Below the pieces are notes generated by a model, which ran no database searches, had not been told where the DNA came from, and worked only from the letters and a program-made list of their open reading frames with translations. Positions 16,781 to 55,375 of a DNA stretch of 64,000 nt are shown here, one piece after another. Both the position numbers and the translations under genes were made by a program. How positions within the stretch are numbered: the first letter of the stretch is position 1; each line of letters begins with the position of its first letter. Location of the stretch: the NCBI RefSeq assembly GCF_000027125.1, contig NC_017626.1. One strand, given 5' to 3'. The DNA comes from Escherichia coli 042 (GTDB lineage: Bacteria; Pseudomonadota; Gammaproteobacteria; Enterobacterales; Enterobacteriaceae).

Positions 16781-16926
16781 TGGCAAACGCAAAACTGCCT
16801 GATGCGCTACGCTTATCAGGCCTACATGAACTCTGCAATATATTGAATTTGCATGCTTTTGTAGGCCGGATAAGGCGTTTGCGCCGCATCCGGCATTTCA
16901 CAACAAGCACTTGTCAGCAATTTGAG
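16781..16926. repeat. BIME (pair of inverted REP elements) between rhlE and ybiA
   Basis: gcctgatgcgctacgcttatcaggcctac and gtaggccggataaggcgtttgcgccgcatccggcat; near-copy of the element at 42021-42164. Confidence 0.65.
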
Positions 16927-17579: not shown

Positions 17580-19730
17580 ATGGCATTAACCGCCGCGCTT
17601 AAAGCGCAAATTGCCGCCTGGTATAAGGCGCTTCAGGAACAGATCCCCGACTTTATTCCCCGTGCGCCGCAGCGGCAGATGATTGCGGACGTCGCCAAAA
17701 CGCTGGCCGGAGAAGAAGGGCGGCATCTGGCGATTGAAGCTCCCACCGGCGTTGGGAAAACGCTCTCCTATTTGATCCCCGGCATCGCCATTGCCCGCGA
17801 AGAGCAAAAAACGCTGGTGGTGAGTACCGCCAACGTGGCGTTGCAGGATCAGATTTACAGCAAAGATTTACCGCTGCTGAAAAAGATCATTCCCGATCTT
17901 AAATTCACTGCCGCTTTTGGGCGTGGGCGCTACGTTTGCCCGCGTAATCTGACGGCGCTTGCCAGTACTGAACCCACGCAACAGGATCTGCTGGCGTTTC
18001 TTGACGACGAACTGACGCCAAATAATCAGGAAGAGCAAAAACGTTGTGCGAAACTTAAGGGCGATCTCGATACTTATAAATGGGATGGTCTGCGCGATCA
18101 TACGGATATTGCTATAGATGACGATCTCTGGCGTCGTTTAAGTACCGACAAAGCCAGCTGCCTCAACCGCAACTGTTATTACTATCGCGAATGCCCGTTT
18201 TTTGTCGCTCGTCGGGAGATTCAGGAAGCGGAAGTGGTGGTGGCAAACCATGCGCTGGTGATGGCGGCGATGGAAAGCGAAGCCGTATTGCCTGACCCGA
18301 AAAATTTACTGCTGGTGCTGGACGAAGGTCATCACCTGCCGGATGTGGCGCGGGATGCGCTGGAGATGAGCGCCGAAATCACCGCGCCCTGGTATCGGCT
18401 GCAACTGGACTTGTTCACGAAACTGGTCGCTACCTGTATGGAGCAGTTTCGCCCGAAGACCATCCCACCGCTGGCGATCCCCGAGCGTTTGAATGCGCAT
18501 TGTGAAGAGTTGTATGAGCTTATCGCCTCGTTAAACAACATTCTCAATCTCTACATGCCTGCCGGGCAGGAGGCAGAACACCGTTTTGCGATGGGCGAAC
18601 TACCTGATGAAGTGCTGGAGATCTGCCAGCGGCTGGCAAAACTCACCGAGATGCTGCGTGGTCTGGCGGAGTTATTTCTTAACGATTTAAGTGAGAAAAC
18701 CGGCAGCCATGACATTGTACGTCTGCATCGGTTGATTTTGCAGATGAACCGCGCGCTGGGGATGTTCGAGGCGCAAAGCAAACTCTGGCGGCTGGCGTCT
18801 CTGGCGCAATCTTCCGGTGCGCCGGTGACCAAATGGGCGACGCGGGAAGAGCGCGAAGGGCAGCTACATCTCTGGTTTCACTGTGTGGGTATTCGTGTCA
18901 GCGATCAGCTGGAAAGGCTGCTGTGGCGCAGTATTCCGCACATTATTATCACTTCCGCGACCTTACGTTCGCTGAACAGTTTTTCGCGTTTGCAGGAGAT
19001 GAGCGGGCTGAAAGAGAAAGCGGGCGACCGTTTTGTGGCGCTGGATTCCCCCTTTAACCACTGCGAACAGGGCAAAATTGTTATTCCCCGGATGCGCGTT
19101 GAGCCTTCCATCGACAACGAAGAGCAGCACATTGCTGAAATGGCAGCCTTTTTCCGTGAGCAGGTGGAGAGCAAAAAACATCTCGGTATGTTGGTACTGT
19201 TTGCCAGCGGACGGGCGATGCAGCGGTTTCTCGACTATGTGACGGATTTACGCCTGATGTTGCTGGTGCAGGGCGATCAGCCGCGTTATCGCTTAGTTGA
19301 ACTGCACCGCAAACGCGTTGCCAACGGTGAGCGTAGTGTGCTGGTGGGCTTACAGTCCTTTGCCGAAGGACTTGATTTGAAAGGTGATCTGCTCAGCCAG
19401 GTGCATATCCACAAAATCGCTTTTCCGCCCATCGACAGCCCGGTGGTGATCACCGAAGGGGAATGGCTGAAAAGCCTCAACCGCTATCCGTTTGAGGTGC
19501 AAAGCCTGCCGAGTGCCTCGTTTAACCTGATTCAGCAGGTTGGGCGACTGATTCGAAGCCACGGTTGCTGGGGCGAAGTGGTGATTTACGATAAACGCTT
19601 GCTCACCAAAAACTACGGCAAGCGGCTACTGGATGCATTACCGGTATTTCCGATAGAGCAACCGGAAGTCCCTGAAGGTATAGTTAAAAAGAAAGAAAAA
19701 ACGAAATCCCCACGCCGTCGGCGGCGTTAA
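17580..19730 (+). CDS. dinG: ATP-dependent DNA helicase DinG
   Basis: 716 aa from ATG 17580 (MALTAALKAQ...); APTGVGKT Walker A and DEGHHL box; the ORF-track start at 17445 is an extension. Confidence 0.95.
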   Translation: MALTAALKAQIAAWYKALQEQIPDFIPRAPQRQMIADVAKTLAGEEGRHLAIEAPTGVGKTLSYLIPGIAIAREEQKTLVVSTANVALQDQIYSKDLPLLKKIIPDLKFTAAFGRGRYVCPRNLTALASTEPTQQDLLAFLDDELTPNNQEEQKRCAKLKGDLDTYKWDGLRDHTDIAIDDDLWRRLSTDKASCLNRNCYYYRECPFFVARREIQEAEVVVANHALVMAAMESEAVLPDPKNLLLVLDEGHHLPDVARDALEMSAEITAPWYRLQLDLFTKLVATCMEQFRPKTIPPLAIPERLNAHCEELYELIASLNNILNLYMPAGQEAEHRFAMGELPDEVLEICQRLAKLTEMLRGLAELFLNDLSEKTGSHDIVRLHRLILQMNRALGMFEAQSKLWRLASLAQSSGAPVTKWATREEREGQLHLWFHCVGIRVSDQLERLLWRSIPHIIITSATLRSLNSFSRLQEMSGLKEKAGDRFVALDSPFNHCEQGKIVIPRMRVEPSIDNEEQHIAEMAAFFREQVESKKHLGMLVLFASGRAMQRFLDYVTDLRLMLLVQGDQPRYRLVELHRKRVANGERSVLVGLQSFAEGLDLKGDLLSQVHIHKIAFPPIDSPVVITEGEWLKSLNRYPFEVQSLPSASFNLIQQVGRLIRSHGCWGEVVIYDKRLLTKNYGKRLLDALPVFPIEQPEVPEGIVKKKEKTKSPRRRRR

Positions 19731-50993: not shown

Positions 50994-51959
50994 ATGGGCA
51001 AAGCAGTCATTGCAATTCATGGCGGCGCAGGTGCAATTAGCCGCGCGCAGATGAGTCTGCAACAGGAATTACGCTACATCGAGGCGCTGTCTGCCATTGT
51101 TGAAACCGGGCAGAAAATGCTGGAAGCGGGCGAAAGTGCGCTGGATGTGGTGACGGAAGCGGTGCGTCTGCTGGAAGAGTGTCCACTGTTTAACGCCGGA
51201 ATTGGCGCTGTCTTTACGCGTGATGAAACCCATGAACTGGACGCCTGTGTGATGGATGGTAACACCCTGAAAGCCGGTGCGGTGGCGGGCGTTAGTCATC
51301 TGCGTAATCCGGTTCTTGCCGCCCGGCTGGTGATGGAGCAAAGCCCGCATGTGATGATGATTGGCGAAGGGGCAGAAAATTTTGCGTTTGCTCATGGCAT
51401 GGAGCGCGTCTCACCGGAGATTTTCTCCACGCCTTTGCGTTATGAACAACTAATGGCAGCGCGTGAGGAAGGGGCAACAGACCTCGACCATAGCGGTGCG
51501 CCACTGGATGAAAAACAGAAAATGGGCACCGTGGGTGCCGTGGCGTTGGATTTAGACGGCAATCTGGCGGCAGCCACGTCCACGGGCGGAATGACCAATA
51601 AATTACCCGGACGAGTTGGCGATAGTCCCTTAGTGGGTGCCGGATGCTACGCCAATAACGCCAGTGTGGCAGTTTCTTGTACCGGCACGGGCGAAGTCTT
51701 CATCCGCGCGCTGGCGGCATATGACATCGCCGCGTTAATGGATTACGGCGGATTAAGTCTCGCGGAAGCCTGCGAGCGGGTAGTAATGGAAAAACTCCCT
51801 GCGCTTGGCGGTAGCGGTGGCTTAATCGCTATCGACCATGAAGGGAATGTCGCGCTACCGTTTAACACCGAAGGAATGTATCGCGCCTGGGGCTACGCAG
51901 GCGATACGCCAACCACCGGTATCTACCGTGAAAAAGGGGACACCGTTGCCACACAGTGA
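50994..51959 (+). CDS. iaaA: Isoaspartyl dipeptidase / L-asparaginase IaaA (Ntn hydrolase)
   Basis: 321 aa; autocleavage/nucleophile region GTVGAVALD. Confidence 0.95.
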
Positions 51960-53817
51960 TGAACTTGATGCCGGTGATGTGCTGGCGGTTGAAAATCTGA
52001 ATATTGCCTTTATGCAGGACCAGCAGAAAATAGCTGCGGTCCGCAATCTCTCTTTTAGCCTGCAACGCGGTGAGACGCTGGCAATTGTTGGCGAATCCGG
52101 CTCCGGTAAGTCAGTGACTGCGCTGGCATTGATGCGTCTGTTGGAACAGGCGGGCGGTTTAGTACAGTGCGATAAAATGCTGTTGCGGCGGCGCAGTCGC
52201 GAAGTGATTGAACTTAGCGAGCAGAGCGCTGCACAAATGCGCCATGTGCGCGGTGCGGATATGGCGATGATATTTCAGGAACCGATGACATCGCTGAACC
52301 CGGTATTTACTGTGGGTGAACAGATTGCAGAATCAATTCGTCTGCATCAGAACGCCAGTCGTGAAGAAGCAATGGTCGAGGCGAAGCGGATGCTGGATCA
52401 GGTACGCATTCCGGAGGCACAAACCATTCTTTCACGTTATCCGCATCAACTCTCTGGCGGGATGCGCCAGCGAGTGATGATTGCGATGGCGCTGTCATGC
52501 CGCCCGGCGGTGCTGATTGCCGATGAGCCAACCACCGCGCTGGATGTCACTATTCAGGCGCAGATCCTGCAATTAATCAAAGTATTGCAAAAAGAGATGT
52601 CGATGGGCGTTATCTTTATCACTCACGATATGGGCGTGGTGGCAGAGATTGCCGATCGGGTACTGGTGATGTATCAGGGCGAGGCGGTGGAAACGGGTAG
52701 CGTCAAACAGATTTTCCATGCACCGCAACATCCTTACACCCGTGCGCTGTTAGCTGCTGTTCCGCAACTTGGTGCGATGAAAGGGTTAGATTATCCCCGA
52801 CGTTTCCCGTTGATATCGCTTGAACATCCAGCGAAACAGGAACCACCCATCGAGCAGAAAACGGTGGTGGATGGCGAACCTGTTTTACGGGTGCGTAATC
52901 TGGTCACCCGTTTCCCTTTGCGCAGCGGTTTGTTGAATCGCGTAACGCGGGAAGTGCATGCCGTTGAGAAAGTCAGTTTTGATCTCTGGCCTGGCGAAAC
53001 GCTATCGCTGGTGGGCGAGTCTGGCAGCGGTAAATCCACTACCGGGCGGGCGTTGCTGCGCCTGGTCGAATCGCAGGGCGGCGAAATTATCTTTAACGGT
53101 CAGCGAATCGATACCTTGTCATCCGGTAAACTTCAGGCATTGCGCCGCGATATTCAGTTTATTTTTCAGGACCCTTACGCTTCGCTGGACCCACGTCAGA
53201 CCATCGGTGATTCGATTATTGAACCGCTGCGCGTACACGGTTTATTGCCAGGTAAAGAAGCGGCTGCACGCGTTGCGTGGTTGCTGGAGCGCGTGGGCCT
53301 GTTACCTGAACATGCCTGGCGTTACCCGCATGAGTTTTCCGGCGGTCAGCGCCAGCGCATCTGCATTGCTCGCGCGTTGGCATTGAATCCAAAAGTGATC
53401 ATTGCCGACGAAGCCGTCTCGGCGCTGGATGTTTCTATTCGCGGGCAGATTATCAACTTGTTGCTCGATCTCCAGCGTGATTTCGGCATTGCGTATCTGT
53501 TTATCTCCCACGATATGGCCGTGGTAGAGCGGATTAGTCATCGTGTGGCGGTGATGTATCTCGGACAAATTGTTGAAATTGGTCCACGGCGCGCGGTCTT
53601 CGAAAACCCGCAGCATCCTTATACGCGTAAATTACTGGCGGCAGTTCCGGTCGCTGAACCGTCCCGACAACGACCGCAGCGTGTACTGCTGTCGGACGAT
53701 CTTCCCAGCAATATTCATCTGCGTGGCGAAGAGGTGGCAGCCGTCTCGTTGCAATGCGTCGGGCCGGGGCATTACGTCGCACAACCACAATCAGAATACG
53801 CATTCATGCGTAGATAA
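51946..53817 (+). CDS. gsiA: Glutathione ABC transporter ATP-binding protein GsiA (two ABC domains)
   Basis: 623 aa from TTG 51946 (protein [10 protein letters not shown]...); two GESGSGKS Walker A motifs; overlaps the iaaA 3-prime end by 14 nt. Confidence 0.92.
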
Positions 53818-53836
53818 CATTCAGGCGGAGAATAAA

Positions 53837-55375
53837 ATGGCAAGAGCTGTACACCGTAGTGGGTTAGTGGCGCTGGGCATTGCGACAGCGTTGATGGCAT
53901 CTTGTGCATTCGCTGCCAAAGATGTGGTGGTGGCGGTAGGATCGAACTTCACCACGCTCGATCCGTATGACGCAAATGACACGTTATCTCAGGCCGTAGC
54001 GAAATCGTTTTACCAGGGGCTGTTTGGTCTGGATAAAGAGATGAAACTGAAAAACGTGCTGGCGGAGAGTTATACCGTTTCCGATGACGGCCTTACATAC
54101 ACCGTGAAATTGCGGGAAGGAATTAAATTCCAGGATGGCACCGATTTCAACGCAGCGGCGGTAAAAGCGAATCTGGACCGGGCCAGCGATCCGGCGAATC
54201 ATCTTAAACGCTACAACCTGTATAAGAATATTGCCAAAACGGAAGCGATCGATCCAACAACGGTAAAGATTACCCTCAAACAGCCGTTCTCAGCGTTTAT
54301 TAATATTCTTGCCCATCCGGCGACCGCGATGATTTCGCCGGCAGCGCTGGAAAAATATGGCAAGGAGATTGGTTTTCATCCGGTGGGAACCGGGCCGTAT
54401 GAACTGGATACCTGGAATCAGACCGATTTTGTGAAGGTGAAAAAATTCGCGGGTTACTGGCAGCCAGGATTGCCCAAACTGGACAGCATAACCTGGCGTC
54501 CGGTGGCGGATAACAACACCCGCGCGGCAATGCTGCAAACCGGTGAAGCGCAGTTTGCTTTCCCCATTCCCTACGAGCAGGCCGCACTGCTGGAGAAAAA
54601 CAAAAATATCGAGTTGATGGCCAGTCCGTCAATTATGCAGCGTTATATCAGTATGAACGTGACGCAAAAGCCGTTCGATAACCCGAAGGTCCGTGAGGCG
54701 CTGAATTACGCCATTAACCGCCCGGCGCTGGTGAAAGTGGCCTTCGCGGGCTATGCAACGCCAGCTACTGGTGTGGTACCGCCGAGTATCGCCTACGCGC
54801 AAAGTTATAAACCGTGGCCTTACGATCCAGTGAAAGCGCGCGAATTACTGAAAGAGGCGGGATATCCCAACGGTTTCAATACCACGCTGTGGTCGTCACA
54901 TAACCACAGCACCGCGCAGAAAGTGCTGCAATTTACCCAGCAGCAGTTAGCGCAGGTCGGGATTAAAGCCCAGGTGACTGCGATGGATGCCGGACAGCGG
55001 GCGGCAGAAGTTGAAGGTAAAGGGCAAAAAGAGAGCGGCGTGCGGATGTTCTACACTGGCTGGTCGGCTTCAACCGGCGAAGCGGACTGGGCACTATCGC
55101 CGCTGTTTGCCTCGCAGAACTGGCCACCGACGCTGTTTAATACCGCGTTTTACAGCAATAAACAGGTGGATGACTTCCTGGCTCAGGCACTGAAAACTAA
55201 TGATCCGGCAGAAAAGACCCGTTTATATAAGGCGGCGCAGGATATCATCTGGCAAGAGTCGCCGTGGATCCCGCTGGTGGTAGAAAAACTGGTGTCGGCA
55301 CACAGTAAAAACCTGACCGGTTTTTGGATCATGCCAGACACCGGTTTCAGCTTTGAAGACGCGGATTTGCAATAA
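53837..55375 (+). CDS. gsiB: Glutathione-binding periplasmic protein GsiB
   Basis: 512 aa from ATG 53837 (MARAVHRSG...) with signal peptide; the ORF-track start at 53570 is an extension. Confidence 0.95.

Follow-up and report, generated by a model that had tools for sequence, protein, structure and literature searches.

In Escherichia coli 042, iaaA and gsiA lie one behind the other and share 14 nucleotides, and their junction raises two questions: at which codon translation of gsiA begins, and whether the overlap between the two reading frames means that synthesis of GsiA is coupled to that of IaaA. The junction is part of a stretch of 64,000 nucleotides (contig NC_017626.1) that was analysed as a whole and is referred to here as the window. 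An earlier, sequence-only reading of the window had proposed that the gsiA frame begins at a TTG codon at position 51946, and had taken the overlap to imply translational coupling. The proposed start site is borne out by the sequence itself, by the RefSeq/PGAP and curated MG1655 annotations, by published mapping of initiating ribosomes in K-12, and by comparative analysis; the overlap by itself, however, is no proof of coupling, as it appears to be a by-product of the loss of a stop codon and gsiA possesses a Shine-Dalgarno (SD) sequence of its own. Taken together, the evidence makes it very probable that the locus is an ordinary boundary between iaaA and gsiA, the two leading genes of the iaaA-gsiABCD cluster, in which an SD sequence guides ribosomes to the TTG and in which the overlap arose when iaaA lost its stop codon.

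The iaaA-gsiA junction and its annotation

The features of the junction are collected in Table 1. Between positions 51927 and 51962 the iaaA frame reads CGT GAA AAA GGG GAC ACC GTT GCC ACA CAG TGA TGA, while the gsiA frame, when opened at 51946, reads TTG CCA CAC AGT GAT GAA CTT GAT GCC GGT, which corresponds to (M)PHSDELDAG. The sequence-only reading was accurate in stating that the TTG overlaps the last 14 nucleotides of iaaA, up to and including the stop codon, and that the N-terminus of GsiA offers no in-frame ATG, since none occurs between the TTG and codon 23. It had also remarked that the mechanically generated list of open reading frames opens this frame at an upstream ATG, and the list does indeed begin it at 51838, yielding a protein of 659 residues.

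Table 1. Positions of the elements discussed at the iaaA-gsiA junction, numbered within the window.
Feature	Position	Strand	Basis
iaaA (beta-aspartyl/isoaspartyl peptidase)	50994..51959	+	ORF; 321 codons and TGA stop
gsiA (glutathione ABC transporter ATP-binding protein)	51946..53817	+	623 codons and stop, TTG start
TTG initiation codon of gsiA	51946..51948	+	Sequence and homologous start-class codons
14 nt shared by iaaA (frame 0) and gsiA (frame +1)	51946..51959	+	Sequence, ORF list, annotation
iaaA stop TGA, with a second in-frame TGA directly after	51957..51962	+	Sequence
Shine-Dalgarno AAGGGG of gsiA, within iaaA codons 314-316	51934..51939	+	Anti-SD duplex energy, conservation
iaaA codon 314 (AAA, Lys), site of the putative ancestral iaaA stop	51933..51935	+	Alignment with relatives
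Upstream in-frame ATG, rejected as gsiA start	51838..51840	+	Mechanical ORF list
GTG codon 12 (Val12), 2006 K-12 gsiA start, rejected as main start	51979..51981	+	TetRP
Sigma-70-like match TTTACA-17-TATATT, 5' of iaaA	50887..50915	+	Consensus scan alone

The GsiA protein is composed of two fused ABC domains, and its residues 1-11 lie ahead of the first of these. In profile searches, paralogous ABC profiles match both halves of the protein, and GsiA residues 1-623 cover the whole 623-position profile of the NCBIfam equivalog NF007613, with a score of 1377.7 bits against a cut-off of 1077. IaaA, in turn, is matched along residues 1-321 by the NCBIfam equivalog NF007589, and an N-terminal peptide of the K-12 protein is present in the TRAINSPOTTER supplement. 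A few Citrobacter IaaA proteins have 322 residues and end in VATQR or VATQW, an observation that is consistent with the use of the second TGA. Growth with glutathione or under limiting sulfate induces the operon by way of CysB.

The TTG start of gsiA is the standard annotation in E. coli and is already known, with published initiation-site mapping. RefSeq/PGAP annotates iaaA and gsiA with the identical TTG start and the same 14-nt overlap, and the curated MG1655 record places iaaA at 866568..867533 and gsiA at 867520..869391 (protein NP_415350.2). As in the window, gsiA of E. coli K-12 (b0829, formerly yliA; U00096.3/NC_000913.3) opens with a TTG, at 867520, and encodes 623 residues, and K-12 iaaA (b0828) overlaps it by 14 nt. 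The GsiA of the window is 98.6% identical to that of K-12 and differs from it by strain-level substitutions only; residue 11, for instance, is Asp in the window and Asn in K-12. The strain closest to the window is FDAARGOS_497, with 99.8% identity across the junction. All but one of 5426 complete E. coli genomes contain the 801-nt junction, and the sequence immediately surrounding the TTG (57-60 nt) is the same in 5131 of 5422 genomes of the species; two E. coli variants, on inspection, proved to have G in place of A at 51934, in the SD region (IaaA K314R), and to retain the TTG. The value of establishing this start lies mainly in correct annotation, since the longest-ORF start at ATG 51838 is wrong and the curated TTG, with ribosome profiling behind it, is correct.

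Published mapping of initiation at gsiA

Initiation-site mapping, which the sequence-only reading had put forward as a means by which to verify the start, has been published for K-12, and the peak sits on this very TTG (PMC4909307). In that study (Nakahigashi 2016), initiating ribosomes were mapped by tetracycline-inhibited ribosome profiling (TetRP), and row 8 of Table S2 lists yliA, the former name of gsiA, with a new initiation site at 866743 in U00096.2 coordinates, a shift of -33 nt relative to the 2006 start, and with TTG as the new codon. In the three samples, the TetRP signal amounted to 46.3, 140.5, and 70.6 at the TTG, as opposed to 0, 0, and 2.98 at the GTG start of 2006. The difference between the TetRP site and the 2014 annotation is 0, and another table of the same study gives gsiA at 867520..869391 in U00096.3 coordinates. 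The 2014 record, U00096.3, revised many of the starts of the 2006 record, U00096.2, and 63 of these were independently recovered by TetRP; gsiA is among the listed cases of re-annotated and TetRP-confirmed starts, with signal at the new site only, and its row in Table S2 bears the entry '6. nt' in the confirmation column and a blank in the peptide column (PMC4909307). Since the 2006 start corresponds to the GTG at 51979, the start has been moved from this codon to the TTG, and the move is supported by initiation-site mapping.

The gsiA peak falls within iaaA coding sequence, so ribosomes elongating along iaaA or terminating there could contribute to it, although the P site of a terminating ribosome would be 8 nt away. 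The TetRP search covered positions within 60 nt of the 2006 start (PMC4909307), and ATG 51838 lies outside this range, so that its exclusion comes from comparative evidence only. Among the matches listed in TRAINSPOTTER, Nakahigashi 2016, Salmonella riboproteogenomics, and Giess 2017, there was no N-terminal peptide of GsiA.

The start codon in related bacteria

Comparative evidence was drawn from the best 80 orthologous loci in contigs representing one genome per species, a set in which Salmonella is absent and to which Klebsiella junctions were added from records mislabelled 'plasmid'; for loci L016, L017, L039, L054, L057, and L069, a position-based alignment was used and not the automatic choice of the start with the best SD. 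In most of the 80 loci, including those of Betaproteobacteria, iaaA lies directly 5' of gsiA. In Enterobacterales loci that carry no indels, the codon homologous to codon 1 of E. coli gsiA is located exactly 11 codons 5' of the conserved Val12, and in approximately 27 such loci this codon is TTG, GTG, or ATG. TTG is found in Escherichia, Citrobacter, Superficieibacter, Pseudocitrobacter, and K. aerogenes; GTG occupies the position in approximately 10 loci, from Enterobacter, Lelliottia, Phytobacter, Kosakonia, Pluralibacter gergoviae, Siccibacter, K. pneumoniae, and others; and ATG is present in approximately nine, from Leclercia, Pluralibacter sp., Cedecea, Rahnella, Mixta, Pantoea, and others. 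The interchange of these three triplets at a single codon is the signature of an initiation codon. In addition, many genera (at least 15) carry an in-frame stop 9-36 nt 5' of the gsiA start codon, which excludes a long N-terminal extension.

The pattern of substitutions leads to the same codon. Over the 120 nt 5' of the TTG, nucleotide changes among Escherichia and Citrobacter sequences fall on third positions of iaaA codons in 13 of 15, 18 of 21, 18 of 21, and 17 of 20 cases, and these positions are the second positions of the gsiA frame; a hypothetical extension of the gsiA frame through this region is 55% identical between the two genera where IaaA is 93-95% identical. This upstream pattern indicates selection in the iaaA frame only, and 3' of the overlap the substitutions shift onto the third positions of gsiA. 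The predicted pairing with the anti-SD sequence also sets the TTG apart, its duplex of -7.8 kcal/mol, with a spacer of about 5-6 nt, being the best of the six in-frame candidates; the remaining five are ATG 51838 (-1.5 kcal/mol), ATG 51847 (-4.8 kcal/mol, with no spacer), GTG 51928 (-3.1 kcal/mol), GTG 51979 (-6.0 kcal/mol, with a spacer of 1 nt), and ATG 52012 (+0.4 kcal/mol). The duplex energy of the TTG falls within the top 3.2% of the 3183 NTG triplets on this strand of the whole window, and the SD sequence is kept as AAGGAG or AAGGGG in relatives. Annotation, TetRP, and comparative evidence thus establish the start of gsiA at TTG 51946, together with its SD sequence.

Other starts, and even a fusion of the two proteins, can be conceived. 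If the GTG of codon 12 were the main start, GsiA would have 612 residues and would not overlap iaaA at all. The profiles of the paralogous ABC ATPases YejF, DppD, OppD, and CntF start to align at residues 12-13, which may be the reason for the choice made in 2006, and the codon is widely conserved and has a moderate anti-SD duplex; its conservation, however, is accounted for by the fact that it encodes the Val of a conserved V-L motif, and its SD-like match is just 1 nt distant from the codon. The near absence of TetRP signal at this position (PMC4909307), protein homology that runs to residue 1 in many genera, an equivalog profile that spans GsiA from its first residue to its last, and the likely ATG starts of Betaproteobacteria, approximately 14 codons 5' of the GTG, all argue against it, and render a main start at this position very improbable. 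A start at ATG 51838 (or 51847), which would produce a GsiA of 659 residues and an overlap with iaaA of approximately 120 nt, is still harder to sustain. ATG 51838 is the first ATG of the open frame and is beyond the reach of the TetRP search, but it lacks an SD sequence, is absent in E. albertii, and is used by neither RefSeq/PGAP nor the MG1655 record; moreover, at least 15 genera have the frame closed just 5' of the codon equivalent to the TTG, and selection is seen in the iaaA frame only. ATG 51838 is an artefact of longest-ORF listing, and the probability that gsiA starts there is close to nil.

The same holds for the idea that ribosomes shift by +1, in a programmed manner, close to the A-rich run GAAAAAGGGG and thereby generate an IaaA-GsiA fusion protein. 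In Escherichia and Citrobacter an open +1 frame extends from 51826 onward, and an A5G4 run is present at 51931-51939, but no recognised slippery-site pattern is apparent in the iaaA frame upon reading of the sequence, most of the remaining genera have the +1 frame closed, there is no report of a fusion product, and the chains of IaaA crystal structures stop at residue 321 or 315. The frameshift fusion was rejected on account of the missing in-frame slippery motif and of the closed frame in other genera.

Origin of the overlap

An explanation for the overlap is provided by the 3' end of iaaA in related genera. In Leclercia, Lelliottia, Enterobacter, Phytobacter, Superficieibacter, and Pseudocitrobacter, iaaA ends at ...TAT CGT GAA TAA, and in these six genera the TAA is fused to the SD sequence (TAAGGAG or TAAGGGGG), 12-14 nt before the gsiA start. 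The gene ends in CGC GAA TAG in K. pneumoniae, where a 17-nt spacer follows, and in CGC GAA TAA AAGGAG in K. aerogenes. Only Escherichia and Citrobacter carry GAA AAA GG(G/A)G at the aligned position, and the equivalent of iaaA codon 314 is TAA or TAG in at least eight genera and AAA in these two. A single T-to-A change at 51933 removes the iaaA stop and adds eight residues to the protein, up to a TGA that lies inside gsiA.

As far as the aligned sequences go, the difference in stop codon between the two sets of lineages is clear. Its direction, with the stop being ancestral and the AAA derived, is suggested by parsimony from the outgroups, in a sample that does not include the closely related Salmonella. 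The ancestor of most Enterobacteriaceae would have had an iaaA that ended at an SD-fused TAA (TAAGGAG), about 10 nt before the start of gsiA, and in the lineage of Escherichia and Citrobacter one T-to-A substitution would have converted this stop to AAA, with iaaA now being read for eight codons more. The 14-nt overlap would hence represent a lineage-specific result of stop loss, a one-nucleotide accident (TAA to AAA), and would reflect no special design.

The tail that was added to IaaA has the form K-G-D/E-T/S-V-A-T-Q, and reads KGDTVATQ in the window. The best 120 IaaA homologues in a large protein database, which stem from E. coli and Citrobacter, all carry a ...YREKGD(T/S)VATQ tail; these homologues include the long-tail form only, and the polarity of the change was taken from genomic loci. 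Solved homologues of IaaA align no further than residues 295-315, which leaves the tail with no structural counterpart, and the chains of IaaA crystal structures reach residue 321 at most, the E. coli beta-chain 2zal_B ending at 315. The end of 2zal_B and the limit of the homologue alignment give indirect hints, and no more than these, of a disordered tail in crystals.

Huber et al. 2023 (PMC10666635) describe the loss of a stop codon as the way in which long overlaps most often arise. In the stop-loss overlaps of Fukuda 2003 and others, as summarised in PMC10666635, a single substitution in the upstream stop extends the gene to the next in-frame stop within its downstream neighbour, just as the change from TAA to AAA would have extended iaaA. 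Unlike those overlaps, the one between iaaA and gsiA spans just 14 nt, since a TGA happens to be near, and the ancestral SD and start codon remain unchanged.

Junction geometry and translational coupling

In those Enterobacterales loci where the junction could be called clearly, iaaA terminates between -22 and +11 nt relative to the gsiA start codon. The geometry is -8 in Pantoea sp. 1.19, -4 (ATGA) in Rahnella, Erwinia, and RIT691, and -1 in Pluralibacter sp., Cedecea, and two Enterobacter spp., and a spacer of +9 to +19 is found in many genera. Known coupled pairs, such as those of Huber et al. 2019 and 2023, are also co-directional and have a very tight junction, with spacings of -4 (ATGA) or -1 (TGATG/TAATG), whereas the E. 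coli iaaA-gsiA pair has a spacing of -14 and a strong SD sequence.

If coupling were obligatory, GsiA synthesis would depend on ribosomes that have just completed iaaA, either because such ribosomes, after termination at the TGA, step back 11 nt and start anew at the TTG, or because ribosomes translating iaaA unfold a local structure that hides the gsiA start. Several features of the locus are in keeping with this idea. The two genes are neighbours on the same strand, with synteny that extends to Betaproteobacteria; a consensus scan identified no promoter-like site inside iaaA, in a search that employed consensus matching only and in which the number of hits was not above shuffle expectation; and no terminator-like site was present on the + strand at the junction. 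The distance between stop and start is held tight across Enterobacterales, with the -4 and -1 arrangements among those observed, which suggests selection for a tight junction, and coupling is most efficient at small distances (PMC12548453). A weak TTG start could, in addition, gain from ribosomes that are delivered locally. Nevertheless, a spacing of -14 is outside the enriched classes of -4, -1, and -8 (PMC12548453, PMC10666635), and in a synthetic series, as cited in a 2025 review (PMC12548453), coupling falls as the overlap grows from -4 to -25 nt, with none at -25. Overlaps that arise from stop mutations are typically long and uncoupled, and in native E. coli pairs even a spacing of +14 nt cut re-initiation by 40-80% (Huber et al. 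2023, PMC10666635). The presence of a good SD sequence upstream of gsiA also weighs against a strict requirement for coupling, as does the predicted folding of the local RNA: the segment 51896-51995 folds at -32.1 kcal/mol versus a shuffle mean of -27.6 kcal/mol (z = -1.5), which is no significant gain in stability over shuffled sequence, the native energy is equalled or surpassed in 14 of 200 shuffles, and the flanking stem of the fold, as judged by eye, is not kept in Citrobacter. RNA structure as a coupling device was consequently rejected, and obligatory coupling as a whole is considered unlikely.

A literature search retrieved no coupling experiment on the iaaA-gsiA pair, and no published gauge of the extent to which gsiA initiation depends on iaaA translation. 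Coupling to some degree is plausible, and in the most likely arrangement the SD sequence directs initiation to the TTG and coupling is no more than partial. A single mRNA would carry both iaaA and gsiA, and ribosomes would begin GsiA at the TTG under the guidance of the AAGGGG in the last codons of iaaA; initiation would be mainly SD-directed, and ribosomes completing iaaA would contribute partial help at the most. The probable stop-loss origin of this overlap is a warning against treating every overlap as evidence of coupling.

Possible consequences of the stop loss

A more tentative proposal, which we regard as possible though doubtful, is that the stop loss altered the ratio of IaaA to GsiA synthesis in comparison with Klebsiella or Enterobacter. 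Termination of iaaA would have shifted from a point about 10 nt before the gsiA start codon to one 11 nt past it, and ribosomes that finish IaaA would now sit directly on the gsiA SD sequence and TTG. A change in ratio could then come about through occlusion, that is, anti-coupling, or through backward re-initiation over 11 nt. If this were true, the TAA and AAA forms of the junction, which lie one nucleotide apart, would constitute a natural allelic pair with which to address how overlap geometry sets coupling. The lineages also offer a natural contrast for the rules of coupling geometry, with an overlap of -14 on one side and a spacer of +10 on the other.

The iaaA-gsiA junction

The reading frame of iaaA, which encodes the beta-aspartyl/isoaspartyl peptidase, is closed by two tandem in-frame stop codons, TGA TGA, at 51957-51962. 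Comparison of IaaA homologues identified a few Citrobacter proteins of 322 amino acids that end in VATQR or VATQW, a length that is expected if the first TGA were mutated and the second one used instead. Two IaaA proteins labelled as Salmonella enterica (P0027 and P0028), both of 321 amino acids and 89% identical to the E. coli protein, group among the Citrobacter sequences, which may be due to either mislabelling or transfer.

Within E. coli, differences somewhere in the 60-nt junction between iaaA and gsiA were detected in 291 of 5422 genomes. In strains NRG 857C and CREC7837, an A-to-G substitution at 51934 (GAAAGAGGGG) replaces Lys314 of IaaA by Arg, and also modifies the Shine-Dalgarno sequence of gsiA, which lies within the last codons of the upstream gene.

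The N-terminal region of GsiA

When GsiA is compared with the profiles of its paralogues among the peptide-type ABC ATPases (YejF, DppD, OppD, CntD/F and SapD), the alignments start only at residues 12-13, and the first 11 residues are thus a leader that is specific to GsiA. The junction alignment reveals that the leader residues PHS-E-D are kept within the Enterobacteriaceae and diverge outside the family.

Features located in the window
Feature	Position	Strand	Remark
GsiA residue 12	51979		paralogue profile alignments start at residues 12-13
ES036 (CssrF) sRNA	16818-16860	-	Rfam match scoring 41.5 bits (gathering cut-off, 37.6)

Database records and mechanical gene calls

In Klebsiella aerogenes NCTC10006 (LR134125.1), gsiA is made up of two CDSs and iaaA runs beyond its usual stop. 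Just upstream, this record lacks one base that is present in other genera (ATTGAATTTATCGC), a deletion that points to indel errors in the assembly rather than to biology. Several PLSDB 'plasmid' records (H71, H73, H78 and H81) are 4.8-5.4 Mb in size and harbor the chromosomal iaaA-gsiA locus, and are therefore mislabelled chromosomes; it is from such records that the Klebsiella iaaA-gsiA sequence was taken.

The start of gsiB, the next gene, at TTG 53570, proposed by the mechanical ORF list (53570-55375) and located inside gsiA, is an artefact of longest-ORF calling, as was the case at gsiA. RefSeq places the gsiB start at the ATG equivalent to 53837, yielding a protein that begins with MARAVHRS and leaving 19 nt after the gsiA stop.

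With regard to RNA genes, the 85-nt tRNA-Gly(GCC) called by ARAGORN at 19326-19410 (+) is a false positive: in every E. coli genome, this stretch is part of the gene for the DinG helicase (dinG) and codes for protein. The ES036 (CssrF) sRNA is the sole Rfam match above the gathering score across the 64-kb window.
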